A DNA stretch of 62,708 nt, filler included. It is 4 parts of 4 records of this genome, joined end to end, with 100 filler letters (N's around TTAATTAATTAA, not from the genome) between each part and the next. Parts side by side here need not be neighbours in the genome. Positions count along the whole stretch, not along the records: positions 17,312 to 32,772 come from SRR20825006_1055; 3 more parts are not named here. One strand, 5' to 3'. This document shows, piece by piece, positions 10,269 through 32,772 of the stretch (position 1 is the first letter of the stretch; each line of letters begins with the position of its first letter). Position numbers and translations under genes: made by a program. The notes under the pieces were generated by a model. The model was not told the DNA's origin. It did not search any database and saw nothing but the letters and a program-made list of their open reading frames with translations.

Positions 10269-10302
10269 GGGATCGTTTTCCTCGAAAACGGCGTATGACC
10301 GT

Positions 10303-10983: not shown

Positions 10984-11098
10984 TCGATACTCCGGCCCGC
11001 TCTTTCAAGTTCCAGTGCCGGGCCTTCTAAACGTTTTTTTCCCGCGTGGTAAGGGCAAAAGCGGTCCTTTACCCTTCAATTCAAAACGAAAGCTGCCG

Positions 11099-11686: not shown

Positions 11687-11792
11687 GGAAACGCCCTCTC
11701 ATTGAAACCGGAAAGTCGCGCTCACACTATCGCAGACGGCAGAAAACAGAAATGACGTTCTTCATCAAACCGCACGTCTGCCGAAAACACCT

Positions 11793-16170: not shown

Positions 16171-17211
16171 ATGACGATCCGTTTCATACTGAACGCACAG
16201 GAGGTCGCACTCGACAGGCTTTCTCCAACGGCAACGCTGCTGGATTATCTTCGGCTGGAGAAACGACTGACCGGCTCGAAGGAAGGCTGTGCGGAAGGCG
16301 ATTGCGGGGCCTGCACGGTTTTGGTCGGCCGTCTGGTGCGTGGACGACTCGTTTATGAAACAGTCAATGCCTGTATCCGCTTCGTCGCTTCGCTTCATGC
16401 CACACATGTTGTGACTATCGAGCATCTGGCGGGCATGGACGGTGCGCTTCACCCGGTCCAACAGGCCATGGTGGATCTCAACGGATCACAATGCGGTTTC
16501 TGCACACCCGGCATCGTCATGTCGCTTTATGCGCTGTGGATGGAAAATCCGTCTCCCTCGCGCCCGGCGATTGAGCAGGCTCTTCAGGGTAATCTCTGTC
16601 GCTGCACAGGCTATGAACCGATTATCAAAGCCGCCGAGAAAGCATCTGCAATGCGCCCGGATGCCGCCTTCGACGCGATAGCCCGCGAACGTGACAGCGT
16701 GATGGAAATGCTTGCTGCCTATAAAACCAGCGAGACGGTTACAGTTGGCAATGACAGCGCGCGTGCCATTATTCCAGGCTCAATTGATGCATTGACCGGG
16801 ATTTTAAAGGAATTCCGCGACGCAACCATCGTTGCCGGTTCCACCGATGTCGGGCTTTGGGTCACCAAGCAGATGCGCAAGCCAAATCCGGTGGTCTTCA
16901 TCAATCATCTGGAAGAGTTGCAGACGATCACCGAGACAGAAGACAGCTTTATCATCGGCGCCGGTGTCACCTACTCCGAAGCGCTTCCGGCGATGGCCGC
17001 GAAAATCCCCTCGCTTGGTAAGCTGATCACACGCATCGGCGGCGAACAGGTCCGCAATATGGGAACCATCGGCGGCAATATTGCCAACGGCTCGCCGATC
17101 GGCGACACGCCACCCGCGCTGATTGCTCTGAGTGCTCAGTTGACACTGACCTCGGCAGACGGAACGCGCACGATCGCGCTTGAGGATTTCTTCATCGATT
17201 ACGGCAAGCAG
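16171..17211 (+). CDS. xdhA: Xanthine dehydrogenase small subunit (3' truncated at contig end)
   Basis: KEGCAEGDCGAC, SQCGFCTPG and NLCRCTGY Fe-S motifs; FAD domain GTIGGNIANGSPIGD. Confidence 0.95.
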
Positions 17212-17311
17212 NNNNNNNNNNNNNNNNNNNNNNNNNNNNNNNNNNNNNNNNNNNNTTAATTAATTAANNNNNNNNNNNNNNNNNNNNNNNNNNNNNNNNN
17301 NNNNNNNNNNN
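17212..17311. other. Artificial contig spacer
   Basis: 44 N + TTAATTAATTAA (stops in all six frames) + 44 N. Confidence 0.99.
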
Positions 17312-18123
17312 TCCCACAACCGCGCCGACCAACCTCCCGTCGTCTTGTCGTGCGTTGTCCAGGAGCGCTCGCGCTCGCGGCTGATCCGATGGCGAGCGCG
17401 CACGAGATGGAGCTGCTCTCCGCGCTGCACGAGCGCGGTTTTCAAGTCCCTGAGCCCATCTTGCTCGGCCAGGATGAGCTCCTCGGGTCCTGTGTGATCA
17501 GCGCGTTTGTTCCTGGCCAGCCGGCGACTTTTCTGGAGCAGCCGATGCTTCCAGATCAGTTGGCGTCGCTGCTCGCGAGGTTGCATGCGTCGGACCTCCC
17601 TCGGTTTCCATGGTCGAGGGATGCACACGAGGTGATGCGCGAGAGCGTCATGCGCGAGGGCAGCGTTTACGATGCTTCTGTCGATCACGAGCTCTTGCGC
17701 GAGCACTTCGTGCGACGGTGGGATACTGTTCGTCAGCAAGATAAATCGCGGTCTGGAGGCATCGTATTGCACGGCGACCCGTGGCCCGGAAACCTGTTGG
17801 TAGAAGATGGCGAGGTTCGCGCGCTGATCGATTGGGAGGATGCCTGTCTAGGCGATCCCATGATGGATGTGGCCATCGCCAGGTTGGAGCTGCATCTGCT
17901 CTTTGGCGAGGAGTACGCCGCGCGGTTTGTCGACGCCTACCGCCGCGCATCCAAAGCAAATACAGATACGCTGGCGGACTGGGCGTTGGCCGTGGCCGCT
18001 CGCCCGACCGGGTCGTTCGACGCCTGGGAAGAAGGATTCGCGCAGATGGGCAGGGCTGATTTGACCGCGCGCGTCTTGCGCGCGCGGCACGCCGAGTTTG
18101 TCAGGATGCTACAGCTTGGCTAG
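17312..18123 (+). CDS. Aminoglycoside phosphotransferase/choline kinase-like protein (probably 5' truncated)
   Basis: LHGDPWPGNLL and LIDWEDA motifs; frame open to the contig edge. Confidence 0.85.
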
Positions 18124-18196
18124 GATGGCCGCGTCGAATACTTCACGCGTTTCACCGCGAAATAACACACCCTTGGCCAACTCCCAGGCAACCACC

Positions 18197-19018
18197 ATGA
18201 CTCCAGGAAATGTCTTTATCACCGGGGGCGCCTCTGGCCTCGGTCAGGCGCTCGCCAAGCAATACGGTCGCGCCGGATGGCGCGTGTGCATCGGCGACTT
18301 GAGCGTCGAGCGTTGTGACGAGACGATGCGTGCCCTCGAAGCGCTCGGCGCGACCGCTCATGCGATCGCCTGTGATGTCACGCGCGAGCCAGATCTGGAG
18401 AGCGCCGCGCGCTGGATGGACGAGCACTGGGGCGGCGCAGACATGATCATCAACAACGCTGGCGTCGCGCAGGTCGGTCCGCTCAAGGATGTCACGCTCA
18501 AGGACTGGCGCTGGATCATCGAGATCAACATGCTCGGCGTCGTGCGAGGGTGTAAGGTCTTTATCCCACGCTTCGAAGAGCAGGGACATGGCGCCATCCT
18601 CAACATCGCGTCGATGGCCGGGCTCACGCACATGCCCAGATCCGCATCCTACAACGCCACCAAGTCCGCCGTGATCGCCATCTCCGAGACGCTCGAGCTC
18701 GAGCTCGATCCGAGCATCCAGGTCTCTGTCGCCTGTCCCGCGTTCTTTCGCACCAACCTCACGGAGTCGCTGCGCGCGACCGATTCGCGCGGCGAGAAGA
18801 TGGTCAACAAGCTGGTGGGTCACGCGCGCGTGGGCGCAGACGAGATCGCCGAGAAGATCTTCCAGGGGGTCGAGCGTGGTGATTTTCACATCCTCACGCA
18901 CCCGGACTCCGAGAAGGTCTGGTGGCTCAAGCGCTTGCTACCTCACAAGCTCTACCTCAAGGCGCTCTCGACCTTACAGGAGCGCGCCGCGAAGCGGCGC
19001 GCCGGGCGTAATTCCTGA
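18197..19018 (+). CDS. SDR family oxidoreductase
   Basis: TGGASGLG, NNAG, YNATK. Confidence 0.92.
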   Translation: MTPGNVFITGGASGLGQALAKQYGRAGWRVCIGDLSVERCDETMRALEALGATAHAIACDVTREPDLESAARWMDEHWGGADMIINNAGVAQVGPLKDVTLKDWRWIIEINMLGVVRGCKVFIPRFEEQGHGAILNIASMAGLTHMPRSASYNATKSAVIAISETLELELDPSIQVSVACPAFFRTNLTESLRATDSRGEKMVNKLVGHARVGADEIAEKIFQGVERGDFHILTHPDSEKVWWLKRLLPHKLYLKALSTLQERAAKRRAGRNS

Positions 19019-19024
19019 GCATTC

Positions 19025-20419
19025 TTACTCGCGCTCTTTCAATGGCAAGATCCAGGCGCGGTGCGCGAACGTATCGAGCGGCTCGCTCGCCAGGTCGACC
19101 TCGGGGTCGATCATGCGCTGCGCGGGCCTGCCATCGAGCGAGACGAAGCTCTCGGCGTAGACCTCGGGCGTGTAGCCGTGATTTTCGCGATGTCGCCTCG
19201 CGAGCTCGTGCGCGAACTCGAGGATCATGTCAGGCTGCGTCACCAACATCTTGTGTTGAAGCGGCGTCAGGTGATGCCTCGGGTAGATCCTCCATCGCCT
19301 TCCATCCACCGGGCTCACGAGCGTGTACTCCAGCCTCCCGGTCTTCTCGATAAGCATCACGCGCCAGGAGAACCTGAACCCCTCTTCGGTCCAGTTCACC
19401 CACCCCGGGTATGCCAGAAATCGCAGCGGTATAAGCGCCTGCGCGCCGAGCCAGCATACAAGAAACAGGTTGCCGAGTTTGTGGCGAAACCTGTCATAAG
19501 ACGCCTCGACGCCGCTGGCGTGGGGCATATCGACGTGCTTGCCGGTTAGCTTTGCTGGCCAGTCGGGCGCGAAGAAGAGCGTCAGGCTCGCGAGCATCAC
19601 GAACGAGAACATCCCGATGGGAAAGAGCGCCCAGACCGTCAGGTGAAAGAACAGCGCTACCGCGAAGGCCCACGGTCTCGTCCTTGGATAAAGCAAGAAG
19701 AGCCACACCGTCCCATCAAAGAGCATCCCTCCCCAACTCATCGCGATGGCGACCTCGGGGAGCACCAGCCACGAGCCAATCACCGGAATCCCCTGGTGAG
19801 CCTGAAGCCATGTGTGCAACGGCTCGCCGCGCAATAACCAGTCGCCGTTGATCTTGGCAAAGCTCGCGAACCCATAGACGAGAATCATCTGCCCTCGAAA
19901 CAGCCAGTAATCGCGCCACCGCGTCCTGTTTTGGGTGTCATTGCTCGACCTCTCAGGCAAGAGCGCGAAGACCTGATCGGTGCGCACCACCATCAGCAGC
20001 ACCGCCAACAAACTCACCAGGTAATAGTGGTTGAGGTAGGCGGCCTTCTCGATGAGTTCCAGCCAGGTGAACGCCACGAAGAAGATGCCCGCAGACAACC
20101 TCGCCCTCACCCCGAGCGCGAGCGCGAGCGCGCTCGCGCCAATGACACCCAGGTGCAAGGTCACGCCGAGGTGACCCCCCAGCGGCTCGACCCATCGAAA
20201 GTTCGCGTAGGTGAAGTGATAGGTCGGCGCGACGAGGATCGTGTCGACCCAACCCATCATCACATAGCGCGCCGCCGCGACCGCCATGATGAGACCGAAC
20301 ATGACGCGAAAGGCAGCGAGGGCGTGGGGTGGCGCGGGCGCTTCGAGCGCCCGCACCGCCCCACGCCCTCGCTGCCAGGGTGACTTTATCGCTGGACGTT
20401 CAGTCTCCATCGCTGTCAT
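19025..20419 (-). CDS. HTTM-domain protein, vitamin K-dependent gamma-carboxylase homologue
   Basis: LAAFRVMFG, YLNHYYL, FAKINGDWL, FHL...LFPIGMF, FRFSWRVML, QPDMILEFAH and IDPEVDL match GGCX/HTTM family motifs. Confidence 0.88.
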   Translation of the reverse strand: MTAMETERPAIKSPWQRGRGAVRALEAPAPPHALAAFRVMFGLIMAVAAARYVMMGWVDTILVAPTYHFTYANFRWVEPLGGHLGVTLHLGVIGASALALALGVRARLSAGIFFVAFTWLELIEKAAYLNHYYLVSLLAVLLMVVRTDQVFALLPERSSNDTQNRTRWRDYWLFRGQMILVYGFASFAKINGDWLLRGEPLHTWLQAHQGIPVIGSWLVLPEVAIAMSWGGMLFDGTVWLFLLYPRTRPWAFAVALFFHLTVWALFPIGMFSFVMLASLTLFFAPDWPAKLTGKHVDMPHASGVEASYDRFRHKLGNLFLVCWLGAQALIPLRFLAYPGWVNWTEEGFRFSWRVMLIEKTGRLEYTLVSPVDGRRWRIYPRHHLTPLQHKMLVTQPDMILEFAHELARRHRENHGYTPEVYAESFVSLDGRPAQRMIDPEVDLASEPLDTFAHRAWILPLKERE

Positions 20420-21515
20420 TGAAGCTCGGTGTCAACGAGAGCAGCCCGACCACATCTGCTTGAATCAACGTCTGCAATTCTCCAAGCGCCTCGTGCGCAG
20501 AGCGCACGCGGTCGGGCTCTTCGAGCACGGCTTTGCTCAAGGGCGCTTCGATCGCATCGAGCGCGCCGCGTGCGGCCGCGAGTTTTCCGTCAAACGCTGC
20601 CACGAGGTCTGGTCTGCCTTGAAGGCGAGGGTGAGAGGCGAGCCCGCGAGCGCTCTCATCGCCGTGGAACAGCAGCTCGATCATCTCGAGGTTGGCCTCG
20701 ATATCCTCGATGCTATGGCCGCTCCAGTAGGACTCGACCTTGTGCGGTTGAGGCTCGCCGCCGGTTTCATCTCCGAGCGGTCTCCCGAGCTTATCACGGC
20801 GGATGTTCTCGAGCGTGAAGCCCATCCGGTTGACCACCTCGCTCATCGCCTCCTGGGTGTTCATATACATCCCATCCTCGACCGAAGCTGGCGCGACGAG
20901 CTCGTCGAGGAAGTTGCCGCCTTCTCGGCTCCATGCGTCCTCGAAGCCTTTCGCCAGGTTGGCAAGATCGCCGGATGCGGCCACGAGATAGGTGCACCTG
21001 CGCGGGTTCTCGGCAAATGCAGCGAGCGTGTCATCGCCTGCGGACCAGAGCAGGTACTCGATCACGGGCAACCCGCGTCGGCTCGCGCCGCTCGTGCCCA
21101 GTGATGCCGCGTCGAGGTCGTCTTCGGAGAGCAACGTCTCCTCGATCGTGGTCTCGCGCGCTGGCCAGAAGTCGATGTTCGGTCCGAAGCGTTCGGGGTA
21201 GGCGACATGCGGACCGAAGGCAAAGACCTCCATGCGCTTGTATGCGTATCGCGCCTTCTCCCACGCATCGCGTGTGGATAGAAGCAGCGCTTCATCCTCG
21301 GGGGAGTCGCAGAACGCGTTGCTCGCTGCGGCGAGCGCTTCGCTCTCGCTGGTGAAGCGCTCGTAGCCAGGCAGGATCGCTCCCTCTCCCTGGGACTTCA
21401 GGATGTCTTCGCGCGGGTCCTCTTCTGGAGTGTTCTCTCTCAGGCAGGACGCCAGCCCGATCAACAGGATCAGCCAGGGGAGCAGGGCGAGGCGTGTTCG
21501 TTTCGGTTCGGGCAT
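20400..21515 (-). CDS. Imelysin-family lipoprotein (second type, lacking the HxxE His)
   Basis: Lipobox LASC; IDFWP, GLPVIEYLL; C-terminal FNDSDGD. Confidence 0.85.
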   Translation of the reverse strand: MPEPKRTRLALLPWLILLIGLASCLRENTPEEDPREDILKSQGEGAILPGYERFTSESEALAAASNAFCDSPEDEALLLSTRDAWEKARYAYKRMEVFAFGPHVAYPERFGPNIDFWPARETTIEETLLSEDDLDAASLGTSGASRRGLPVIEYLLWSAGDDTLAAFAENPRRCTYLVAASGDLANLAKGFEDAWSREGGNFLDELVAPASVEDGMYMNTQEAMSEVVNRMGFTLENIRRDKLGRPLGDETGGEPQPHKVESYWSGHSIEDIEANLEMIELLFHGDESARGLASHPRLQGRPDLVAAFDGKLAAARGALDAIEAPLSKAVLEEPDRVRSAHEALGELQTLIQADVVGLLSLTPSFNDSDGD

Positions 21516-22996
21516 CAGAGCGACTCCAGAAATGCGATGAGCGCTTCGCGCTCGCGCGCGTCCATGGCTCTAAAGGCTTCGCGCGATGCTTCGGCCTCTC
21601 CGCCATGCCACAGGATCGCTTCGGCGAATCCTCGCGCCCGCCCATCGTGCAGCAGGCGAGTGTGATCGTTGACTGCATCGACGAGCCCCAATCCCCACAG
21701 CGGCGGCGTGCGCCACTCTCGAGAGGATGCGTCGTGGACGGGGCGACCATCCGCGAGCGCCTCTCCCATGTCATGCAAGAGCAGGTCTGTGTACGGCCAG
21801 ATCTTCTGGTCGCGCGTCTCCTCGAGCGAGGCGTCCGCCGAGGTCCGGTGTGAGGGCGTATGACATCCATCACAACCCGCGTCGAGGAAGAGTTGCTTGC
21901 CCTGTCTGACCGCTGGATCTTCGAGGTTCCGGCGCGCCGGAACCGCCAGCAAGCTCGTGTACAGCACGACGCGCTCGAAGTTGCCATCCTGGATCTCGAG
22001 TCTTTCGGCCGCGTCCTCCGTGTTCGCGTGTTGTGCTTCGAGGCTCTCGGCGCAGGCAACCTGTGGACCCTCGCACTCACCAGATGCGATCAGCGGTGAG
22101 GTGATGCCGATATCACCCAGGAAAGCACCCGCGACCTGTTGCTCGACCGTGGGTTGATCTCCCTTCCAGCCAAAACGTCCGGGGCGGTGCTCGCCAGCGC
22201 GGATATCCCAGACGCGGTTGATGCGTCCGCTGATTCCATCGCCATCGCGATCCTCGGGATCTTCGAGCGCTTCGAGCCGATCCTCGGGGATCGCTTCGAG
22301 TAACCCCAGGCCGATGACCTGCGGCGCGATGCGCGGCGAGACCATCATGTCATCGGGGAAGTCCCCGTAGGCAGGATCGTTTAGGGTGTAGACAGGCTCG
22401 AGGAGGGTGTAGGGCGTGCCATCGCCATACGTTCCCTCGATCTCCTTGTAGGTCACCGAAGGGTTCGCCTCGGCGGGGACGCCGAGGATGCCAAACGGTT
22501 GAAGTTGATCCCCGTAGCCCTCGACGGGCTTTGGCCCGCCGTGACTGTTTTCGCCAGGGATACTGAGTCTGAGGAGGAGCCCTAAAAAAGGCTCCTCCTC
22601 AGACTCCGGCGGCCTCCCACGCCCATCTCGCGGGTGGCACGCAGCACAAGATCTCGCGTTAAAATTCGGCCCCAGGCCATCTCTGTTCCTGGTGCTTGCA
22701 GGCGCCTCGACCCAGGCCTGGTTAAAGAAGCTGTTGCCCGAGTAGAACATCGGCTCGTGCTCGGGCGTGATGTTCTCGGCTGGCCTGATGAACGCGTTTC
22801 GGCCAAACAGCAGCGTGTTGGTCGCTTCGCCGCCTGGCAGCCGCTCGCCATCCTCCAACCACGCCTCGGCCTGTTCCTCGCTGCCGCATCCCGTGAATAA
22901 CAGGATGGCCAGCAAGGGGAGCGCGAGGCGCGCCGGTGATATCTTCGAGCAGTGCTTCAGGCTTCTTTCATGATGATGACGATGGGGGCACATCAT
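21515..22996 (-). CDS. Di-heme oxidoreductase (DHOR)-family c-type cytochrome lipoprotein
   Basis: Two CxxCH motifs (CAACH, CDGCH); DGLGP, GRFGWK, YTDLLLHDMG, WRTPPLWG, LHDGRAR; lipobox FTGC. Confidence 0.92.
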   Translation of the reverse strand: MMCPHRHHHERSLKHCSKISPARLALPLLAILLFTGCGSEEQAEAWLEDGERLPGGEATNTLLFGRNAFIRPAENITPEHEPMFYSGNSFFNQAWVEAPASTRNRDGLGPNFNARSCAACHPRDGRGRPPESEEEPFLGLLLRLSIPGENSHGGPKPVEGYGDQLQPFGILGVPAEANPSVTYKEIEGTYGDGTPYTLLEPVYTLNDPAYGDFPDDMMVSPRIAPQVIGLGLLEAIPEDRLEALEDPEDRDGDGISGRINRVWDIRAGEHRPGRFGWKGDQPTVEQQVAGAFLGDIGITSPLIASGECEGPQVACAESLEAQHANTEDAAERLEIQDGNFERVVLYTSLLAVPARRNLEDPAVRQGKQLFLDAGCDGCHTPSHRTSADASLEETRDQKIWPYTDLLLHDMGEALADGRPVHDASSREWRTPPLWGLGLVDAVNDHTRLLHDGRARGFAEAILWHGGEAEASREAFRAMDAREREALIAFLESL

Positions 22997-23004
22997 GGGT
23001 CAGC

Positions 23005-24180
23005 TCACTCCGCCACGGGGATGTCGAGTTCGAAGAGGCGGAAGGCGTCCTCGAGCAAGTCTTCCTGAGCACGCAGCGAGACGATCAGCGCCTCGACGCG
23101 AGCGCGGCCTTCGGCGTTGTCGACGGCGATCTCTTGATCGAAGGGCGTCTCCATGGCGTTCGCGGCGGCGAGGCTCTCGGCGATCTGTGCCTCGATCTTG
23201 TCGGCGAGCTCGGCGTCGCGCGCGGCGATCACGTCCTTGACGCCAGTGCCCGAGACCTTGGTGCCATCGAGGCGCGTGTAGGTCCCGAGGTAGACGTTCT
23301 GGATGCCCTGGACGTCCTGGATCATGTCGCGGTGTGTGTTGTCACTAAAGCAGGAGTGCTCGTCCTCTTGGTCCCCGGAGTCGAGCGCGGTTTGCAGTCG
23401 CTCGCCGCCTGTCTCGAAGCCGCTCAGGATGATCATTCCGGTGAGCACTTTGCGGAGGCTATCTTCTGGCGACTCGCTCACGAACGAAGCGCGGTAGTTG
23501 TCTCCACCTTCGGCCCATTCGCTCTCGACGGACTCGAGGTGTGTGACGAGCAAGTCCGAGGTCGTCGTCAGGTAGAGGGTGCGGCGGTCAGGGTTTGCCG
23601 CGTTGTCCTCTCCTTCGACGTAGTCGGTGTAGGCGCGATCGCCAGGGCCTGCGGGGTTCATGTCCTGACCCCAGAGCAAGAACTCGATGGCGTGGTATCC
23701 CGTGGCGATGTTCTCCTCGCCACCCTGCTCGTTCAGAGATTCGAGCGACGTGGCCGAGATCTCGACGCTCGTGTCCTGGATGATCCCTGCGTCGGCGTTT
23801 CCTTCGACGTAGTCGATGTATGCCTCGTCGAGCGGCCACGCGTTAAGCAGTCCCTCTGGGCCATCCTCGTCATCGATCGGGCCGCCGTAGAAGCGGTAGA
23901 CCTCGGTCTGGAGGTAGGGCTCGCGAGAGTCGAGCCATGCCTGACGCGCAGCATCGAGGTTTGCTTGCGTCGGGTCCGCAGCGAACGCGTCGATCGCGGC
24001 GTCCAAATCCTTGGCCGCGGTCACGGAGTCTGTGTAGGACGCCGAGACGATGGCGGCGTAGTTGGTGACCATGTCCGAGGTGTTCTCTGGGATCACGGGC
24101 TCGGCTTCACCACAGGCGGTGAGTGCGAGCATCGAGAGCAGCGGCAAGAAGAGCGCGGGTTTCATCATCGACTTCATCAA
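23005..24180 (-). CDS. Imelysin / iron-regulated protein A (IrpA-like) lipoprotein
   Basis: Lipobox LTAC; NAWPLDE, TGYHAIEFLLWGQD, EDEHSCFSDNT. Confidence 0.92.
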   Translation of the reverse strand: MMKSMMKPALFLPLLSMLALTACGEAEPVIPENTSDMVTNYAAIVSASYTDSVTAAKDLDAAIDAFAADPTQANLDAARQAWLDSREPYLQTEVYRFYGGPIDDEDGPEGLLNAWPLDEAYIDYVEGNADAGIIQDTSVEISATSLESLNEQGGEENIATGYHAIEFLLWGQDMNPAGPGDRAYTDYVEGEDNAANPDRRTLYLTTTSDLLVTHLESVESEWAEGGDNYRASFVSESPEDSLRKVLTGMIILSGFETGGERLQTALDSGDQEDEHSCFSDNTHRDMIQDVQGIQNVYLGTYTRLDGTKVSGTGVKDVIAARDAELADKIEAQIAESLAAANAMETPFDQEIAVDNAEGRARVEALIVSLRAQEDLLEDAFRLFELDIPVAE

Positions 24181-24255
24181 TACATTCCTGGTTTATCGAA
24201 CAAACGGGTCGAGACGCGCCGACTTTTGCGTGGCGGTCCGTGTGGCTTGCGATGA

Positions 24256-24310
24256 TTTTGATAATCGATTTCAAATAAAACGCAAGGTGTTTTTGAGAAT
24301 GGATTTCAAA
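24256..24310. promoter_or_regulatory. Two tandem Fur-like boxes
   Basis: TTTTGATAATCGATTTCAAA (24256-24275) and TTTTGAGAATGGATTTCAAA (24291-24310), an AT-rich patch upstream of the imelysin operon. Confidence 0.7.
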
Positions 24311-24411
24311 ATCAACTAAAGTTGTCGCGCGAACACTCGCGCTCGAAGCTTATTGGCGCGCAGCGAACAGGGGGTTGTTCGAGCAAGGTCGGATGACGCT
24401 GAGGGCGTCCG

Positions 24412-25074
24412 TCAGGTTTCGGCAGGAGGGATCTCGATGGGGAAGACGCCGCGAGCATCGAGATCAAAGACAGAGGCGGCGCGCTCGCTCTCCCACGTGG
24501 TCACGTTGGCGAGCACCGATCCCGCGCGCGCCCAACAACCACCCGCGTGGTGAATGTGGCCATAGAGGTGGAGCCTCGGTTTGGCGCGATCGACGGCCTC
24601 GAGCAAGTCCGCGCAGCCTCCTCGACCCGGGACAAACTCCTTGTCTCCGTAGCCCGCGGGCGGGCCATGGGTGACGAGCACGTCGAGACCGGTCGGAATC
24701 AGCGCCCACTTGCTCGCGAGCTGCTCGCCGCGCGGCAGGTTAAACCCCCAGTCGTTGTAGGCGGGTTGCCAGGGGCTCCCATAGATGCGCAGCCCGAGCA
24801 CTGTGGTCTCCTGATCCTGCAGGTAGCAGATCCCCTCAGGCAACATCGCCAGCGCTTGCTCGGGGGTCTTCTCGAAGCATACATCATGATTCCCCGCCAC
24901 GAGGATCTTGTGCGGGTGGGGGAGGGCGTCGAGCCACGCGAGGCCACGCTCCAGTTCATCGAGGTCGCCACGTTGGAGGAGATCTCCGGCGTGGATGAGG
25001 ATGTCTCCCTGCGGCAATTCTGGGAGGTCGTCATGGTAGAGGTGGGTGTCGGCGATCGCGACGATGCGTGGCAT
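24412..25074 (-). CDS. Metallophosphoesterase (MPPED/239FB-like)
   Basis: DTH, HAGD, AGNHD, THGPP, GHIH. Confidence 0.92.
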   Translation of the reverse strand: MPRIVAIADTHLYHDDLPELPQGDILIHAGDLLQRGDLDELERGLAWLDALPHPHKILVAGNHDVCFEKTPEQALAMLPEGICYLQDQETTVLGLRIYGSPWQPAYNDWGFNLPRGEQLASKWALIPTGLDVLVTHGPPAGYGDKEFVPGRGGCADLLEAVDRAKPRLHLYGHIHHAGGCWARAGSVLANVTTWESERAASVFDLDARGVFPIEIPPAET

Positions 25075-25144
25075 GGCATCCTCCGTGTGTGTCAGGCGTC
25101 AGGATACCTTATCGTGCCACTTGCCAGCGCATCCTGGCCAGCGT

Positions 25145-25768
25145 TCACTTGCGCGCGATGATCCACGTGACGATCGGCCACTCGGGGTCATCGCGGATGG
25201 CGAGCTTGGTGAGCGGGTGCCACTTTGCGGCGGGGAGCTTCTCGTAGCGCAGCCCGACGCGCTCGAGCAGCCACACCGAGAAGTTGCCCCAGCCATCGCA
25301 GTCGATGACTTCGCCAAAGTCCTCGCACAACAGCTCGAGCGCGTTGGGCGTAAAGCGCCAGTAGTCGTGCGGGTAGTCGTGCACCGGGTTGATAAAGCAG
25401 GTGGTGTGGATGGCGATGCCACCCGGCTTGAGGACCCTGAGCGATTCTTCCATCGCCAGCTTGGGGTTCCCCTGAACGTGCTCGAGCACCTGGTCGCTGA
25501 CGATAAAGTCGTAGGCGCCATCCTCGAAGCCCTTCAAGTCGAGCAGGTCGTGATCGGGAAAGTTCGCCTCATCGATCTGGCAATCGCCAAGACCCATCCG
25601 CGCGCACAACTTCGTGGAGTGTGAAACCGACAGCACGCGCGCTCCTGGCTCGGGCGTAAATCGGTGGCGCTCCATCCGCTCGTACATCGTGTAGCGCGTC
25701 ATATGCGGGCCGCGCTCGAAGCCTTTCATCGAGAGCTTCAGGGTGTGTTTGATCAGGTTTTTGAACAT
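25145..25768 (-). CDS. Class I SAM-dependent methyltransferase-like protein
   Basis: YDFIVSDQVLEHV, RVLKPGG, HDYPHDYWRF; start uncertain (25768, 25804 or 25855). Confidence 0.8.
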   Translation of the reverse strand: MFKNLIKHTLKLSMKGFERGPHMTRYTMYERMERHRFTPEPGARVLSVSHSTKLCARMGLGDCQIDEANFPDHDLLDLKGFEDGAYDFIVSDQVLEHVQGNPKLAMEESLRVLKPGGIAIHTTCFINPVHDYPHDYWRFTPNALELLCEDFGEVIDCDGWGNFSVWLLERVGLRYEKLPAAKWHPLTKLAIRDDPEWPIVTWIIARK

Positions 25769-26063
25769 CGCTCGCTGCCCCTTTTGCGCACCTGTTTTGA
25801 TCATCGGTGCAACCTTAGATAGTGGGGCGCGAGCAATGGCGCAACCACGAATCATGCGGTGAAAGTGGTTGTATAAAATGTTTTTATTGATTTTGGTGTC
25901 GTTTTTGTGCAGTGCACAAAAGCGGCGCTCGTTTCTACGCCGTGCGGGCCCGAGGTGGATTGTCTGTTTTTATGTTCAGTGGTTGCTCGGTCATCGATGA
26001 TCTCCGCATGGTTCAACGAATTGCCTTGCCTTCATCTCGGTCGTGATCACCATCCAGAATGTT

Positions 26064-26082
26064 AAATGACTCGTGGTCATTT
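26064..26082. promoter_or_regulatory. 7-5-7 inverted repeat, candidate operator
   Basis: AAATGAC-TCGTG-GTCATTT upstream of the MBL hydrolase. Confidence 0.4.
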
Positions 26083-26205
26083 GTCGCGCTGGCGATGTTT
26101 TTCGTATCCACCACGCCGCCCCAAAAATGGACCTCGCGTGAGGTCGTTTTCACGCACGAGGACACCCTCCAAGAAGTGGACGAAGAGGAATGAGAGGTAT
26201 CGAGT

Positions 26206-27366
26206 TTGAAAGAGCTAAAGAGCAAGAGATCCTGGAAGTGGTGGCTTGGACGAGGCGCGCTCGCGCTGACTGGCGTCGGCTTGCTCGGCGGCCTCGTGGT
26301 CTATGCTTCGACTGGCTGGGGGGAGGCGCTCGGGGCTGCTCCCAGCGGTGAGCGCCTCGAGCGGATGAAGGCGAGCAAGCAACACGCCGGGGACAAGTTC
26401 ATCAACAAGGTGGAGACGGGCACCATGAAACCGGGCGATGCGCCCGGAGTGATCCTCGAGATGCTCACCAACGATGCTGTGCGAACGCCTACCGTCGAGA
26501 TCCCGGTCCTCTCGCCAGCGCAGCAGCTCGCCACGCCCCCCGAGTCAGGCATGCGCGTGACCTGGATGGGGCACTCCTCACTTCTCATCGAGATCGATGG
26601 CGCCAGAATCCTGACCGATCCTGTCTGGGGAGAGCGCGCTTCTCCATCGACATTGCTCGGACCTGCGCGGTTTCACGAGCCGCCGATTTCGCTCGACGAA
26701 ATCGGCAAACTCGACGCCGTGATCATCTCGCACGATCACTACGATCACCTCGACATGCCCTCGATCAAGAAGCTCGTCGAGCAGGAGGTGCACTTCTATA
26801 TGCCGCTCGGCATCGGCGCGCATATGGAGCGCTGGGGTGTCCCCGAGGAGAGGATTCACGAGTTCGATTGGTGGGAAAAGACCACGCTCGAGGCGCACGG
26901 CGTCGAGCTCGTCTCCACGCCATCCCGCCACTTCTCCGGGAGGGCTGGTATCGACGCGAACCGCACGCTCTGGACCTCGTGGACGATCCTCGGCCCGAAG
27001 CACCGCGTCTACTTTAGCGGTGATAGCGGGTACTCTCCGCACTTCAAGGAGATCGGCGACAAGTATGGTCCGTTCGATCTGACCATGGTCGAGGTCGGCG
27101 CGTATCACGAGGCGTGGGGAGATATTCACCTCGGCCCACATCACGCGATGCAGGCGCACCTCGATCTCGGCGGCAAGAAGATGCTGCCCGTGCACTGGGG
27201 AACCTTTGACCTCGCCCTCCATAGCTGGACGCATCCCGCCCGCGTGCTCGCCGAGGAAGCCCCTGGCAAGCAAATACAGCTCGTCACGCCGCGCGTCGGT
27301 GAGCCGATCGAGCCCACGTCATCGACCACGACAACGCCATGGTGGGAAGCGCTCGGCAGGGAGTGA
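26206..27366 (+). CDS. MBL-fold metallo-hydrolase (NAPE-PLD/RomA-like)
   Basis: WMGHSS, SHDHYDHLD, RHFSGR, SGDSGY, PVHWGTF; N-terminal TM segment. Confidence 0.92.
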   Translation: MKELKSKRSWKWWLGRGALALTGVGLLGGLVVYASTGWGEALGAAPSGERLERMKASKQHAGDKFINKVETGTMKPGDAPGVILEMLTNDAVRTPTVEIPVLSPAQQLATPPESGMRVTWMGHSSLLIEIDGARILTDPVWGERASPSTLLGPARFHEPPISLDEIGKLDAVIISHDHYDHLDMPSIKKLVEQEVHFYMPLGIGAHMERWGVPEERIHEFDWWEKTTLEAHGVELVSTPSRHFSGRAGIDANRTLWTSWTILGPKHRVYFSGDSGYSPHFKEIGDKYGPFDLTMVEVGAYHEAWGDIHLGPHHAMQAHLDLGGKKMLPVHWGTFDLALHSWTHPARVLAEEAPGKQIQLVTPRVGEPIEPTSSTTTTPWWEALGRE

Positions 27367-27378
27367 TGCTGGCGCTAT

Positions 27379-29778
27379 CTAAAAGGTCGCGCTCAGGGTC
27401 AGGCGCGCGTTGATCGGTGAGCCTGGCGAGTAGTGAATCACTGGCAAGGTGTTCGATGTGCTGTCCGAATTGTCCCAGTCGCTGGCGAAGTGATACTCGC
27501 CCTCGCGCAACTGGCGGTTGAGCACGTTCTCGACCTCGAGCCCCGCGCGCATCTTTCGCCACCTGTAACCCAACGTCGCGCCGAGCGCTGAATAGGTCGA
27601 CCCTGTGGCGCCATGTGGGAGCGGCCTCGCGGCGATGACGAGCAGGTTGCCGCCAGCGCTCACGCCGCTCGGGTGATTGCCCAGAGCGCGAAGTCCGGTG
27701 ACAAACCTCGGGGCCAGCGGGACGACGTTCCCCGACTCGACAAAGCGCGCGTCGACAAACGTCATGTTGGCGTGCACTTCGGCCCAGTGATTCGGGTAGA
27801 TCGCCAGCGCGCTCTCGACCCCGAGCCTGCGAGTGCTGTTGAGCTCGAGGCTCAGGCCAGAGACGTGGTCAAAGATCGACTCGCGCTCGATCCTCGTCCC
27901 GAAGAGCGCGCCGCGGAGCTCGATCACTTTGCTCGGTGCGATCGTCGCGCCCATTTCCACCGAGTCTGCGGTCGTCAGTGATGGCGCGCCGGTCCCTGCG
28001 ACCTCGTCGCCGATCCCTTCCCGCGATGGCGTGTAACTCGAGAACGTCCGCGCCTCTGGAGGACGCACGCCTCTCCCGTAGGCCGCGATGAGTTCGAGCC
28101 AGGATGTCGGCTTGTAGGCCGTCAGAACCCTTGGCAGCGGCGCTGCGAGCAAACCGCCGCCTTGTTCGTCTTCATTCTTGTCATTCGCGCGGATGGCGAC
28201 AGCCTGAAGGCGTCCTCCAAGCTCGATGGCGTGCTTGTCCGTCGGTCGCAACCTCAAGGACGCGTTCGTGTTCGCGCCCGCCTGGGTTGCCTCGAGATCG
28301 CGGCGCAGGTCACGCATCTCCTCGGTCTCCGGGTCGACGCGCTCCTCGCGCTGCGTCAACCAATCACCGCGCATCCCCGCGCCGAGCTCGAGCTCGACGC
28401 GTCGATCCTCGCGCAAGGCGATCGCATCGCTGATGGCCAGATCGAGCGATGCGGTGGTCTGCGTCTGCGCGCGCCAGTCGCCAGCGACAGGATCTTCGAT
28501 GTACCCGGTGAAGTTCTCCAGCAGGTCCAGATGGCGCGCGCTCATGGATGCACGCGCCGCGATCAGGTGTGCTCCAGAGGATTGTCGATAGTGTGCCCCC
28601 AGCAAACCTCTGGCGCTCATGCCCTGGCCAAGATCCGAGTACGCGTCGTGGAAGCCGATGCGCTCTCGCTCGACGTCTTCCATGCGCAACAACCCTGGCA
28701 GCTCGAAGCGCCCGAGATAACCGCTCGCCATGAGCGAGAGCGTCTTGTCTCCTGACGAGATCACGCGTCGCCTCGCCATGAGCGAGATGCGTTGCGCGGC
28801 GCGTTGCTGGCCAAAGCCCTCGTCCGCCATCAGCTCCATCGCCAAGAAGTCACGCCCATCGCCATCGCGCGGCGAGAGCGTGAAGATCCCGCGCAGTCGC
28901 CCCGTGGAGCCGACCTCGTAGCCCATCCTGGCGCCTCGGGCATCCGGGGCGACCCCGAGCGTGTATTTCGCCGTGCCCGCCATCGCGAAGAGGCCTTGCG
29001 TCGGGAGAAACGGCCCCTTGATGACCTCGACCTCCGAGATCAACTCCGGGATGATAAACCCGAGGTCGAGATAGCCTTGCGCGTGGATGTTGGACCATTC
29101 GTTGACGGGGATGCCCTCGAGCGTGACCTCGAGGTCGGCGCCATGGATGGCGTCGAAGCCGCGCAGGAAGAACTGATGCCCCTTTCCCTCGCTGCCATGC
29201 TGGACCAGCACCACGCCAGGGACGATCCGAAGCGCATCCTCTGCGGTTCGGATCGGCACCGCTTCGAGGTCGATGCTGTCGACGCGAGAGGATGTCGTGG
29301 TGCGTTGTCCTGTGATTTCAGCGCGCGTCTCGACCTGCTCCGCTTCGCCGCCCTTGGCGGCTTCGGTCAGGTCGATGACGAGCTCCAGTGAGCCGTCTGG
29401 CGCGAGCGCGTCGATCTCGGTGGTAAACGTCTCGAAGTAATCGGATGAGATCGTCGCGGTGAAGGGGAGGGCAGTACATGTATCGAGTTGGATGGCGCCT
29501 TCGCCATCCGAGACGGCGCTCGCGTCAGCGATGGTGACGCGAACGCCAGGGAGAGGATAGCCGTCAGAATCGAGGACAACGCCCTCGAGCGCCGTGACGC
29601 CATCCTCACAGGCGACCTCGGTGGAGGTCGCCTGCTGTGCAGCCGCGGTCGATGTCTGCGCCGCGGTTGCAGCCACGCAGAGGATGGCGGCGATCAGTCG
29701 CCGTGCGTGTGTGCGTCGCAATGCCCCTCTCCGTCCACGTGACCGAGCGTCGCGTTTTGCGCGACGAGCCACTGCCAC
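27379..29778 (-). CDS. TonB-dependent receptor with N-terminal carboxypeptidase-regulatory-like domain
   Basis: Plug region QHGSEGKGHQFFLRGFDAIHG, HAQGYLDL, EVIKGP; VENVLN; terminal F; true start may be TTG at 29721. Confidence 0.88.
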   Translation of the reverse strand: MAVARRAKRDARSRGRRGALRRTHARRLIAAILCVAATAAQTSTAAAQQATSTEVACEDGVTALEGVVLDSDGYPLPGVRVTIADASAVSDGEGAIQLDTCTALPFTATISSDYFETFTTEIDALAPDGSLELVIDLTEAAKGGEAEQVETRAEITGQRTTTSSRVDSIDLEAVPIRTAEDALRIVPGVVLVQHGSEGKGHQFFLRGFDAIHGADLEVTLEGIPVNEWSNIHAQGYLDLGFIIPELISEVEVIKGPFLPTQGLFAMAGTAKYTLGVAPDARGARMGYEVGSTGRLRGIFTLSPRDGDGRDFLAMELMADEGFGQQRAAQRISLMARRRVISSGDKTLSLMASGYLGRFELPGLLRMEDVERERIGFHDAYSDLGQGMSARGLLGAHYRQSSGAHLIAARASMSARHLDLLENFTGYIEDPVAGDWRAQTQTTASLDLAISDAIALREDRRVELELGAGMRGDWLTQREERVDPETEEMRDLRRDLEATQAGANTNASLRLRPTDKHAIELGGRLQAVAIRANDKNEDEQGGGLLAAPLPRVLTAYKPTSWLELIAAYGRGVRPPEARTFSSYTPSREGIGDEVAGTGAPSLTTADSVEMGATIAPSKVIELRGALFGTRIERESIFDHVSGLSLELNSTRRLGVESALAIYPNHWAEVHANMTFVDARFVESGNVVPLAPRFVTGLRALGNHPSGVSAGGNLLVIAARPLPHGATGSTYSALGATLGYRWRKMRAGLEVENVLNRQLREGEYHFASDWDNSDSTSNTLPVIHYSPGSPINARLTLSATF

Positions 29779-30422
29779 ATGTTGCTCACGTCTTCATTGC
29801 CAGGATCGTAGGCGCCGATGCCCGTGGCCTCGAGCTCTTCCTTGGTGATCTCGCCATCTCCATCCACGTCGGAATCGGCCAGAGCTTGAAAGAGCACCTG
29901 GGGCTCTTCCGAGACGAGGCTGTCATAGAGGTAGTGATCGGCGTGAATGGTAACCTGGAAGCTCGCGACTCCGCCATCCTCGACTGCTGTCGTCGTCTCA
30001 CACCTCTCATAGTGAACGGGCGCATCGAAGGTCCAGGAGAAGGTCTTCTCCTGGCCATCCTTCGTCGCGATGCCGCTCAGTTCGACGCGCTCGATGCCAA
30101 ACGACTGGCTCGTGTACTCGCCAGCGGGCAGGGTCAGCGCGCCGACTTCATGCCCCGCGCCATCCGTGCCTTGCGACACGTCGACCTTGTAAGGTCCCGC
30201 CAGCGTCTGCTCGCCGATGGTGATGTCAGTGAGCGAGACATCGAACTTGTTAAAGGTCACGGCCCAGCCATCGCCGACCTCTTCTGCCGGGATGCCTTCC
30301 TCGATGAAGGCTTCGCCATAGGTGTTCACCTTGACCGTGCCTTCGCCAGCGTCGCCGGAACATCCGGTGAATGCAAAGAGTCCAGCCGAGAGCAGCGCGA
30401 TAGCGGTTGTTTTTTCGAGCAT
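29694..30422 (-). CDS. Lipoprotein with DxDxDG motif and His-rich C-terminus
   Basis: Start MLEKTT; lipobox FTGC; TIHADH, DVDGDGEIT, GHVDGEGHCDAHTHGD. Confidence 0.8.
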   Translation of the reverse strand: MLEKTTAIALLSAGLFAFTGCSGDAGEGTVKVNTYGEAFIEEGIPAEEVGDGWAVTFNKFDVSLTDITIGEQTLAGPYKVDVSQGTDGAGHEVGALTLPAGEYTSQSFGIERVELSGIATKDGQEKTFSWTFDAPVHYERCETTTAVEDGGVASFQVTIHADHYLYDSLVSEEPQVLFQALADSDVDGDGEITKEELEATGIGAYDPGNEDVSNMWQWLVAQNATLGHVDGEGHCDAHTHGD

Positions 30423-30489
30423 GTGATTCCTCGTGGCGCACCTGTCATGCGCTGTGTGGGAGAGAGTACGTTTTAACGGGAAATGAAGA

Positions 30490-31320
30490 TCAGTCGAGCA
30501 GCACGACGTCGAAGTGGTCGTGCGTCTGGAATGTACGCCGGAGTGTGTTGTAGGCGTCCTGTTCGGCGTCTGATGCGGAGCTCTCCGAGATGTTGATGGC
30601 GCCATCTCCATCGTCGTCGAGCGCGGCGAAATCGAGCGCGTCGTAGAGCGTGTCTTCTTCGTACCGATCATAGGGGAGGAGCCGAAAACCGAGGCGCTTG
30701 CCTGCGTCCGCTTCGGAGAGCTCCGCCTTGAACGGGATGCCCACGATCTGCCGACCGTCAGGGGCACCGAGCAGGAAGGAGAACGAGATCTCCTCGCCAT
30801 CCTTGCGCGCGACCCCCTCGATAAGCGCGGTCTCGCCAACGAGCGGGTCCTCGTCAGAGAGTCCGCCATCGACAGCCACGCCGCGCTCGAGCGTGAAGTT
30901 CGATGCCTCGTAGCGACCCACCAGCAACGTCGCCTCTCCGAGCGCTTCGTTTGCTTGCGGCCACTTGGCGATGTACGCACCATCGAGCACGCCGGTGACT
31001 TCGCCTCCCTGGTAATGTCCAGGGTGCGCGTGCGCAGGTGTGACGAGCCAGTCGCTTGTTTTCTGTAGCAGCGAGCTCGTGTGCACCTCGCCAGCGATCG
31101 TGAACTGGATGTCTCGGACCACCACGCGTACATTGGTCGTCTCGACCTCCCAGCCAAGATCGGTGGTCACGGGCTCTTCGAGCCCGCTATCATCGAGCTC
31201 TACCGAGAGCTGGATTCGCGGCGTTTCTCGCGCGTCGGTGCAACTGGTCAGCGTTAGCAGCATCCCCATAAGAGGGAGCAGCGTACATCTGAACGGTGTG
31301 TTGTTGGCTCGGGTGAGCAT
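30490..31320 (-). CDS. Lipoprotein with AHAHPGH motif
   Basis: Lipobox LTSC; PAHAHPGHYQGGEVTG; DDDGDG; C-terminal THDHF. Confidence 0.8.
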   Translation of the reverse strand: MLTRANNTPFRCTLLPLMGMLLTLTSCTDARETPRIQLSVELDDSGLEEPVTTDLGWEVETTNVRVVVRDIQFTIAGEVHTSSLLQKTSDWLVTPAHAHPGHYQGGEVTGVLDGAYIAKWPQANEALGEATLLVGRYEASNFTLERGVAVDGGLSDEDPLVGETALIEGVARKDGEEISFSFLLGAPDGRQIVGIPFKAELSEADAGKRLGFRLLPYDRYEEDTLYDALDFAALDDDGDGAINISESSASDAEQDAYNTLRRTFQTHDHFDVVLLD

Positions 31321-31506
31321 CGAGGGCTCCAGGTATCGAAGGACAACGCGCTGTGAACGCGTCGTATGATAATTATAGTTCTTTTACGAGCGACCGATGC
31401 ATTTCGATCATGGGTTTCTTAGCAAAAGGTTCTCTCCGTGGAAACCGTTCACCAGGGGCATACGTATCGATGAAGACAGGGTCGCAATGGGTGCAAGGAG
31501 GCACGT

Positions 31507-32466
31507 GTGAGTAATATTCGAGACTGGACCACGCTACAGCGGTGGCTTTACGCGATCAAACCCGCGAGTTGGCCAAAGCTGCTCGTGCCGATGGTGTTCG
31601 GGCAAGCGCTCGGGATCGCGGTCACGGGGCATATCTCGATGCTCGCGCTCTTGCTCGGGTTTCTCTTCACGCTGTGTGATGGTCTCTTTATCGTGTTGCT
31701 CAACGACTGGGGAGACGAGCACGTCGATCGCATCAAGCGCGAGCTCTTCCCGAACGGTTGCTCTCCGAAGACCATCCCCGATGGCGTGCTCCCTTCACAC
31801 CAGGTGCTCATCGCGGGATTGCTCGCCGGTCTCGGCGCGCTCGTCATCGGCGCGATCGCGACCGTCTCGCTCGGGCTGACTTACGGGTTGCTCGGCGCAG
31901 GTATTTGCCTGGCGATCTTTGTCGCTTACTCACTCCCTCCCTTCGAGCTCAATTATCGCGGCGGCGGCGAGCTGCTGGAGATGCTCGGGGTCGGCGTGGC
32001 GCTGCCGCTGTTCAACGCTTACCTGCAATCCGGGACCCTCTGGGATCCTCGCTACGAGCTGCTCGTGGGCTACGCCTTGCTCTCGATGGCGAGCGCGCTC
32101 GCGAGCGGCCTCTCGGATGAGGTCAGCGATCATCAGGGAGGAAAGAGGACCTTCACCACGATGTTCGGCAATCGCCGCGTGCGCAAGGCGGTCGAGGTGA
32201 CCCTCGGGCTTGGCGGTTTTGCCTGGTGGATCGCGCGCTGGAGGCATGGGGCTGTGATTCCCTGGGTCGCCGTCGCGGGCGCCAACGCCGCGGTGGTTTA
32301 CTACCAGTGGCAACTGCTCGAGATGACGCATCGCGCCAGGACCAACGCGTGGGATGCGCTCGGGCTTTACAAACTCCACCTGCACCGCGGCATCTGGTAC
32401 GCTGGCCTCGTGATGGCATCGGGGCTTTTGCTCCACGCTCTCTGGATTGCAGGAGGCTCCCTGTGA
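31507..32466 (+). CDS. UbiA-family prenyltransferase, MenA-like
   Basis: NDWGD...D, YSLPP...YRGGGE and DEVSD...GKRT motifs; about 9 TM helices. Confidence 0.8.
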   Translation: MSNIRDWTTLQRWLYAIKPASWPKLLVPMVFGQALGIAVTGHISMLALLLGFLFTLCDGLFIVLLNDWGDEHVDRIKRELFPNGCSPKTIPDGVLPSHQVLIAGLLAGLGALVIGAIATVSLGLTYGLLGAGICLAIFVAYSLPPFELNYRGGGELLEMLGVGVALPLFNAYLQSGTLWDPRYELLVGYALLSMASALASGLSDEVSDHQGGKRTFTTMFGNRRVRKAVEVTLGLGGFAWWIARWRHGAVIPWVAVAGANAAVVYYQWQLLEMTHRARTNAWDALGLYKLHLHRGIWYAGLVMASGLLLHALWIAGGSL

Positions 32467-32772
32467 CGCTCTCGGTCATCGATCGCTCGAAAAACAACGG
32501 CTTGAAAGAAGCTCGCTCCATCCTCGGCGCCACCCACGCGGAGCTCTACGCGAGCCACGGCCCGTTCGCCTCGCTCGCTCCTGATCGAGACGAGGCCACG
32601 CCGCTCCACGCGCTGGCCTCGAAGTTGCTCGATGACGCGGACGATGCTGACCTTTGCGTGGCCTTCGGAGAGGGGCTCGCGGCCATCGCGAAGGCTCAGG
32701 TCGAGCACTTCCCCGAGACCCTTTACTGGGACATGGACTTTATGGCGGCGTCCCTGCTCGAGCAGGGACGCC
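32463..32772 (+). CDS. Hypothetical protein (3' truncated), coupled to the prenyltransferase
   Basis: GTGA start/stop overlap, GGAGG upstream, open frame to the contig end. Confidence 0.65.

Follow-up and report, generated by a model that had tools for sequence, protein, structure and literature searches.

Why should an imelysin operon end in a gene for an orthologue of GGCX, the vitamin K-dependent carboxylase? The question is raised by a cassette of four genes in a DNA stretch of 62,708 nucleotides (the window; its length includes filler) that consists of four joined parts, one of which, SRR20825006_1055 (positions 17,312-32,772), carries the cassette. In the direction of transcription the genes encode a canonical imelysin, a di-haem cytochrome c of the DHOR family, a second imelysin of the IPPA type and a membrane enzyme with the HTTM domain of GGCX. 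Fur-regulated imelysin - DHOR - imelysin operons have been described in P. aeruginosa (PA4370-PA4373) and V. cholerae (VC1264 onward) (PMC3143127). The cassette shares with these operons the first three genes, their order and the DGD ending of the IPPA-type protein. However, the fourth gene of the PA4370-PA4373 type (presumably PA4373 itself) encodes a DUF1513 beta-propeller protein, and here it encodes the GGCX orthologue. The imelysin-DHOR-imelysin cassette and the IPPA family were thus already known; the variant with HTTM as the fourth gene and the substrate hypothesis presented below are, as far as we searched, unpublished. Our analysis points to the IPPA-type imelysin as the partner of the enzyme, and we consider it probable that the two proteins are partners in one way or another.

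All four genes lie on the minus strand. Gene 1 (23005..24180) encodes a canonical imelysin lipoprotein of the ICMP/LruB type (Peptidase_M75, PF09375, 7.5e-79; lipobox LTAC) with the GxHxxE motif as GYHAIE (H163) and a pI of 4.05; its listed start at 24180 is TTG, and the first ATG is at 24177. Gene 2 (21515..22996) encodes the DHOR lipoprotein (PF06537, 4.1e-93; lipobox FTGC; pI 4.82) with the haem motifs CAACH at residue 117 and CDGCH at residue 375. Gene 3 (20400..21515) encodes the IPPA-type imelysin lipoprotein (Peptidase_M75, 3.4e-48; lipobox LASC; pI 4.48), in which GLPVIE represents GxxxxE without His, and gene 4 (19025..20419) encodes a full-length GGCX/VKGC orthologue of 464 amino acids. 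When the junctions were read letter by letter, genes 1 and 2 were found to be separated by an 8-nt gap (TGA-gctgaccc-ATG) and genes 2 and 3 to overlap by 1 nt (ctcTGATGccc). The first ATG of the HTTM gene (20419) lies inside gene 3, giving an overlap of 20 nt; an alternative ATG three codons on (20410) would give an overlap of 11 nt, the value found in 8 of the 42 adjacent imelysin-HTTM pairs of the survey described below. The HTTM gene is the final one: only 6 nt separate its stop from the end of a convergent SDR gene, and the flanking genes are unrelated to the cassette; therefore, the unit consists of these four genes. Inside the operon only one sigma-70-like match was detected, at the very 3' end. 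The initial annotation, made from the sequence alone, had described four coupled genes with this gap, this TGATG and this 20-nt overlap as well as very acidic imelysins, and the open reading frames (ORFs), the Pfam matches, the junctions and the two pI values agree with it. In the NCBIfam collection none of the four proteins scored above any cut-off (the LruB model gave 147 bits against a cut-off of 850).

The identity of the fourth product was assessed from its domains, its alignment to human GGCX and its predicted fold. The HTTM transmembrane catalytic domain (PF05090) covers residues 28-287 (19559..20338, minus strand) with 210.9 bits against a cut-off of 27.7 (3.2e-62), and it is followed by the VKGC lumenal domain (PF22777), here periplasmic, at residues 314-462 (19034..19480, minus strand) with 159.5 bits against the same cut-off of 27.7 (7.7e-47). 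The phmmer alignment to human GGCX (E 8e-35) spans both domains. The AF2 model of the protein (pLDDT 91) matched at E<=0.001 only 16 chains, all of GGCX, with TMq values of 0.79-0.82, and transporter chains occurred solely among the non-significant matches (E >= 0.17, TMq ~0.1). Judged by these three lines, the gene 4 product is a GGCX orthologue. It shares with the human enzyme (PDB 9bvq, 9l6q, 9wfn and others) the HTTM and lumenal domains, a TMq of ~0.8 and the residues K218, N159, H160, W223, F294 and F299, and differs from it in identity (~25%), in length (464 versus 758 residues) and at K217, L394 and G396, which are Ala, Gly and Arg here.

Residues singled out in two structure papers on GGCX were mapped onto 50 bacterial orthologues. 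The equivalents of human N159, H160, K218, W223, H287, F294, F299 and W399 were invariant in all 50; in gene 4 they include N130/H131 (N159/H160), K189 (K218), W194 (W223) and F266/F271 (F294/F299). K218 has been named the catalytic residue of GGCX (10.1101/2025.02.09.637231), and carboxylation is impaired in the N159A, H160A, W223A, F299A and Y395A mutants (PMC12647623). Conservation of catalytic residues in bacterial orthologues has been described already, with a tree that includes Sulfidibacter corallicola, the organism of one of our loci (L008) (PMC12647623). The gene 4 family thus keeps what is needed to deprotonate the quinol, to capture CO2 and to form the carbanion, and has lost K217, the lysine that couples epoxidation to the substrate. 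In addition, human L394 is replaced by Gly in 49 of the 50 orthologues and G396 by Arg in every one. The substrate linker is thus more basic and more open in the bacterial family, which would suit a shorter, more acidic substrate.

To which protein the enzyme is linked was evaluated in 56 HTTM-anchored loci from GTDB species genomes, six of which have less than 1 kb upstream and are uninformative. Imelysins were counted by script with a hidden Markov model (HMM) built from the same imelysins, and Pfam confirmed them independently. An IPPA-type imelysin gene lies immediately 5' of the HTTM gene, on the same strand, in 42 of the 50 informative loci (gaps from -74 to +227 nt); in three others it is one gene away (~2.2 kb), the intervening gene in L006 encoding a TonB receptor, and in five no imelysin was found within 8 kb of HTTM. 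According to the record titles, the linked loci belong to about eight phylum-level groups (Pseudomonadota, Bacteroidota, Chlorobi-type, Chloroflexota, Myxococcota, Acidobacteriota, Lentisphaerales and Leptospirales). The layout imelysin - DHOR - IPPA imelysin - HTTM recurs in this survey, all four genes being present in 13 loci, from Myxococcota, Chloroflexota, Sulfidibacter, Lentisphaerales, Leptospirales and one member of the Cytophagales. The Bacteroidota and Chlorobi-type layout is DUF4856 - IPPA imelysin - HTTM - TonB-dependent receptor, without DHOR, and at least 21 of all 56 loci have the receptor gene directly after HTTM. Since the two layouts have only the IPPA imelysin and HTTM in common, this pair is the constant core. 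The linkage across genomes that the initial annotation had thought possible was found, and its partner can be narrowed: the annotation had named the imelysins in general, and this holds for the second, His-less IPPA-type imelysin and not for the canonical one, which is not constantly linked.

The two genes also occur together where they are not neighbours. All five genomes that lack an adjacent imelysin hold an IPPA-type imelysin gene elsewhere, and in two of them a second HTTM copy is located directly behind the distant imelysin. Among 61 sampled Leptospirales genomes, HTTM was found in 27, every one of which has an IPPA-type imelysin; among the 34 genomes without HTTM only three gave an imelysin match, which ended before the tail. 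The Leptospira VKGC orthologue belongs to the same family and likewise lacks K217, and in four of the 14 Leptospirales regions fetched it closes a four-gene cassette as here. In the other ten, however, neither imelysin nor DHOR was found within 8 kb of HTTM; the neighbours in the four unlinked loci searched with Pfam are DprA, TPR and DoxX-like genes. This shows that the HTTM and imelysin genes travel together even when up to megabases apart, in a profile that is inflated by the relatedness of the genomes.

Several loci of the survey depart from the common layouts. A Chloroflexota contig (L003:111-4034) carries DHOR - IPPA imelysin - HTTM - canonical imelysin, with the first gene moved to the end, and L011 has two imelysins and HTTM without DHOR. 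Two Saprospiraceae genomes (L177:1468-3923 and L178:1429-3954) contain two HTTM copies each, of which the one behind the imelysin is paired with the tail variant DSD, not DGD, and the other is located behind a gene for a 1236-residue Ig-repeat protein. Decay was seen twice: on an Anaerolineales chromosome (L017:6770-7743) the imelysin is split over two frames beside integrase and transposase-like genes, and in Algoriphagus halophilus (L047:8037-9321 and 9311-11734) the HTTM gene and the downstream TonB receptor gene are in pieces. The DUF4856 lipoproteins encoded 5' of the imelysin in the Bacteroidota module (L013:5574-6728 and relatives) have an invariant E-H-x-W-D motif; we considered them as hidden imelysins and rejected this, the hhalign probability being 25% and only the signal peptides being aligned.

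The two imelysins of the cassette differ at their motif, GYHAIE in gene 1 being canonical and GLPVIE in gene 3 lacking the His, and a GxxxxE motif without His characterises the IPPA family, of the PA4372/VC1266 type (PMC3143127). The profile of the IPPA-type imelysin matched PDB 3pf0 from end to end (1.4e-35), both ending in DGD. A DGD-COOH ending was present in all 42 HTTM-adjacent imelysins (in one with an extra Gln), with the consensus [TS][FY]xDNDGD. Disorder affects the final six residues of the IPPA protein in its crystal structure (PMC3143127). The tail of the gene 3 product (residues 362-371, TPSFNDSDGD) is encoded by 20403..20432 on the minus strand; both candidate ATGs of the HTTM gene (window 20403-20419) fall within the codons for its last six residues, N-D-S-D-G-D. 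GAT GGA GAC TGA contains an ATG, and as the 11-nt overlap recurs in 8 of the 42 adjacent loci, the conserved imelysin tail and translational coupling use the same bases.

When a complex of HTTM with the mature IPPA imelysin was modelled, the ipSAE values were 0.84, 0.85 and 0.85, and the best of three controls gave 0.00; the ipSAE mark is attained in 51 of 78 solved complexes, compared with 2 of 108 mismatched pairs. Separate runs agreed in at least 69% of the contacts, with a partner pLDDT of at least 88. The best-defined pairs join the last helix of the imelysin (348-357) and its residues 236-250 with residues 360-362, 376-379 and 425-433 of the lumenal domain. On the imelysin side the modelled interface comprises the last helix (345-360) and the tail (362-370), and on the HTTM side it comprises the lumenal residues 358-390 and 425-433 and the pocket residues 127, 129-131, 266-269, 271 and 354-355, among which are the equivalents of human N158-H160, F294, F299 and M401/M402. 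The model supports binding between HTTM and the imelysin. It would also place a docking helix on the lumenal domain and then an acidic stretch at the pocket, as in human GGCX, so that the order from N to C would mirror the propeptide and Gla domain of GGCX substrates. It is unlikely that the model recalls a solved complex, because the imelysin is unrelated to GGCX substrates.

The fourth position of the operon was studied further in a DHOR-anchored sample of 80 metagenome loci, chosen as best matches to HTTM-linked DHORs, of which 54 have at least 2.3 kb downstream. With tblastn, HTTM was detected in 14 of the 54, a share that is not a natural frequency given the HTTM-biased anchor. In the 40 loci without an HTTM match, a Pfam search of the first three ORFs revealed DUF1513 after the IPPA imelysin in 17; the remaining loci have other genes at this position, or the operon ends there. 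When the 136 loci and the window were searched with local HMMs, HTTM was found in 72 and DUF1513 in 23, and none of the 137 had both; the local DUF1513 HMM gave no match in the window. The mutual exclusion of HTTM and DUF1513 thus holds at the level of the locus in these samples. At the level of the genome, DUF1513 was matched in 0 of 10 genomes with the HTTM operon and also in 0 of 14 control genomes, so that only the exclusion by locus stands. On a FastTree phylogeny of 99 DHORs the HTTM/DUF1513 label requires at least four changes, and the well-supported clade of the window's DHOR (n=7) contains four HTTM loci, one DUF1513 locus (L116) and two short contigs. On this tree, therefore, the fourth gene is one that has been swapped repeatedly in otherwise orthologous cassettes. 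In one of the 40 loci without an HTTM match (L084:6371-8456) the gene after the IPPA-type imelysin encodes neither HTTM nor DUF1513 but a membrane di-iron FA_hydroxylase. The fold of DUF1513 is a generic seven-bladed beta-propeller, and its likeness to amine dehydrogenase subunits or to beta'-COP, which binds C-terminal tails, was too generic to use.

Regulation by iron was examined by comparing every 19-mer in the window with a 19-nt Fur consensus; either Fur or a relative of it from the Alphaproteobacteria could be the regulator. The two Fur-like boxes reported by the initial annotation were recovered side by side within 130 nt upstream of gene 1: a proximal site (24254..24272, minus strand) that matches 14 of 19 positions, the top score of the whole window, and a distal site (24295..24313, minus strand) that matches 13 of 19. 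Both have the form TGA-N9-TCA, and by eye they are alike in ~18 of 20 positions. Sites of at least 13/19 numbered nine in the 62.7-kb window and on average 2.7 in block shuffles, with a maximum of 9; therefore either box taken singly is weak, and the case rests on their position and pairing. The PA4370-PA4373 and VC1264 operons are iron-regulated; here the two consensus-like sites stand at the right place, and such control is possible. One published data point speaks for iron regulation of the pairing, as had been supposed. In Riemerella anatipestifer an orthologous group of TonB receptor, VKGC, imelysin and hypothetical protein (RAYM_09779-09794) appears in a table of the genes that Fur controls when iron is restricted (Table 4), the WT-Fe/WT+Fe ratios being 2.11, 2.64, 3.07 and 2.41, respectively (PMC5609570). 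That locus resembles ours in having a VKGC homologue induced beside an imelysin and differs in its Bacteroidota layout, with a TonB receptor and no DHOR named.

We propose that the four genes would act as one cell-envelope cassette induced by iron starvation, three of its products being lipoproteins and the fourth an inner-membrane GGCX orthologue whose active site would face the periplasm. The periplasmic domain of the enzyme would grip the last helix of its partner, the IPPA-type imelysin, and reduced quinone and O2 (and CO2) would be used to modify the DxDGD-COOH tail. The most likely product would be beta-carboxy-Asp, a malonate-type metal chelator, and the reaction would probably take place at the inner membrane during maturation of the lipoprotein, tuning the imelysin for iron capture or hand-over. 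We propose such a modification because the residues for quinol deprotonation, CO2 capture and carbanion formation are all kept. Carboxylation of Asp is our choice since the residues specific to carboxylation do not vary and since an aspartyl residue is what MloH, a bacterial orthologue, carboxylates (PMC12647623, PMC12186529). The layout of the operon, the linkage and co-occurrence of the two genes and the conservation of the catalytic residues are observations, and the complex is a model; what the enzyme acts on, by which reaction and with which cofactor, and how it serves iron uptake, we infer. That a quinol- and O2-dependent enzyme modifies the imelysin tail, most likely by Asp carboxylation, is a tentative reading to which we give somewhat less than an even chance. 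The more far-reaching statement, that the invariant DxDGD tail of the IPPA imelysin is a protein substrate for the bacterial orthologues of the vitamin K-dependent carboxylase and that its Asp is converted to beta-carboxy-aspartate as a chelator of iron or calcium, is possible and in our view doubtful.

Several observations weigh against this proposal. Human K217 corresponds to A188 in gene 4 and to Ala in 46 of the 50 orthologues, and human Y395 to F348, at a position that holds Tyr in 28, Phe in 21 and His in one. In the work of Rishavy (2005) the Leptospira enzyme reportedly epoxidised vitamin K, and test substrates were not carboxylated. Leptospira homologues without K217 are described as showing no substrate activation (10.1101/2025.02.09.637231). 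VKOR, which would recycle the epoxide, was found in 5 of 10 genomes with the operon, a number that neither supports nor excludes a vitamin K cycle. The DGD tail also ends PDB 3pf0 and DUF1513-linked IPPA proteins that have no HTTM (as GFNSxDGD), so the tail does not need the enzyme. The complex was predicted from single sequences without family alignments, and that the tail would lie in the catalytic pocket is read from two lists of interface residues, with no residue pair printed. By the E. coli +2 rule the imelysin lipoprotein would be sent to the outer membrane; any contact with the inner-membrane enzyme would be transient. Finally, the host of the cassette is probably alphaproteobacterial, because RcdA scored above its cut-off in the window. 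Alphaproteobacteria mostly use ubiquinone, and menaquinone may be lacking in this host; the description of the enzyme as menaquinone-dependent in the initial annotation is thus not supported as written.

Some of these points would fit an enzyme that binds the imelysin without carboxylating it, namely a quinol oxygenase or epoxidase that employs its strong base or its redox step in another reaction on the tail or its ligand, such as the oxidation of bound Fe2+ or a different modification. The absence of K217, the Leptospira homologue described without substrate activation (10.1101/2025.02.09.637231), the presence of VKOR in only 5 of 10 genomes and the O2-activating membrane FA_hydroxylase at the same position in L084 are all in line with it. 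However, the invariance in 50 of 50 orthologues of the residues for CO2 capture and the carbanion (the H160, F299, W223 and N159 equivalents) would then be hard to explain, and we regard this alternative as rather unlikely. The same invariance argues against HTTM being a non-catalytic inner-membrane receiver, to which the imelysin tail would deliver metal for import or signalling in the way that EfeO is thought to serve EfeU. Such a role is suggested by the likeness of the DxDGD-COOH tail to a metal-binding loop, which is our own reading, by imelysin cassettes that have no recognisable permease (PMC3143127) and by the replacement of HTTM with the periplasmic beta-propeller DUF1513, which points to binding rather than to an enzyme. 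But a periplasmic propeller cannot import iron either, and the structural relatives of the protein are GGCX chains only, the transporters being non-significant; a receiver of this kind is accordingly improbable.

The initial annotation had put forward two other possibilities. One was the conversion of Glu to Gla on the acidic imelysins, which are indeed rich in Glu (38 and 40 residues), and in its favour the Glu-pocket residues are conserved and GGCX is processive (PMC12647623). But the tail in the modelled interface contains Asp and no Glu in the window, and by eye none of the 42 orthologues has one among its final ten residues; Gla is less likely because of this. Only the second imelysin is constantly linked, and the changes of L394 to Gly and G396 to Arg also tell against it, so that we do not favour Gla formation and consider it very improbable. 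The other was that the enzyme couples the quinone pool to the di-haem DHOR as electron donor or acceptor. Both genes share one operon in this cassette, as they do in 13 or more other loci, but the Bacteroidota modules keep the imelysin and HTTM without DHOR, and so does L011 with its two imelysins. Because the Bacteroidota module lacks DHOR, redox coupling cannot be the general role; with a model that would put the imelysin, and not the haem protein, at the pocket, we find it scarcely credible.

The tail modification that we favour differs from the known cases of the family in its substrate. For human GGCX a propeptide and Glu are involved, whereas the putative substrate here is the C-terminal, Asp-rich tail of a bacterial lipoprotein with neither. 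MloH of malonomycin biosynthesis, which we compared by its description only, is likewise a bacterial HTTM-type carboxylase acting on an aspartyl residue, but its substrate is a polyketide-peptide intermediate in a secondary-metabolite cluster and not a protein tail in an iron operon. EfeUOB also combines an imelysin-domain protein with a haem peroxidase in iron uptake; in contrast, the cassette has no cupredoxin domain, DHOR replaces the DyP peroxidase, and no gene for an Ftr1-type permease (EfeU) was found in the operon or its flanks. In the main texts of the freely accessible papers searched, imelysins and HTTM were joined only in the R. anatipestifer Table 4, uncommented (PMC5609570). MloH, of an antibiotic pathway, was the only bacterial GGCX orthologue for which an assigned function was found in that literature, and recent structure work on GGCX notes the conserved bacterial residues and names no substrate (PMC12647623).

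The pairing, the unlinked co-occurrence and the modelled docking of the tail jointly point to a single candidate substrate peptide and a single catalytic residue, which makes both the function of bacterial GGCX and the workings of imelysin/DHOR cassettes testable. If the proposal is true, a new post-translational modification would be central to a widespread bacterial iron-acquisition cassette, hinting at a prokaryotic role as a possible origin of the Gla chemistry of animals. If the chemistry is carboxylation, it would provide the first example of vitamin K-type modification of a protein in bacteria and a new means of building a metal-binding site.

Other features were noted around the cassette. 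A UbiA-family gene (31507-32466) was tried as a link to menaquinone and rejected, as its MenA score was only 42 bits and the cut-off is 264. A further 13/19 match to the Fur consensus (window 31368-31386) lies upstream of a 487-residue ORF without family match (29694-31157, minus strand), which is followed by a gene for a TonB-dependent receptor (27379-29778, minus strand). These two genes may form another unit under iron control, at a distance of 3 kb from the cassette, and the receptor is a possible outer-membrane partner, as the receptors encoded right after HTTM in Bacteroidota might be. The region 18001-32000, which contains the cassette and the TonB-receptor unit, has a G+C content of 0.60-0.64 compared with 0.53-0.58 in the preceding 18 kb, and horizontal acquisition of this block is possible. 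In that preceding sequence, an ORF for a xanthine dehydrogenase small subunit (16171-17259) aligns with no more than positions 1-345 of the XdhA model, which has 468, and is followed by an APH-like kinase gene, not by xdhB; it may be a truncated remnant.

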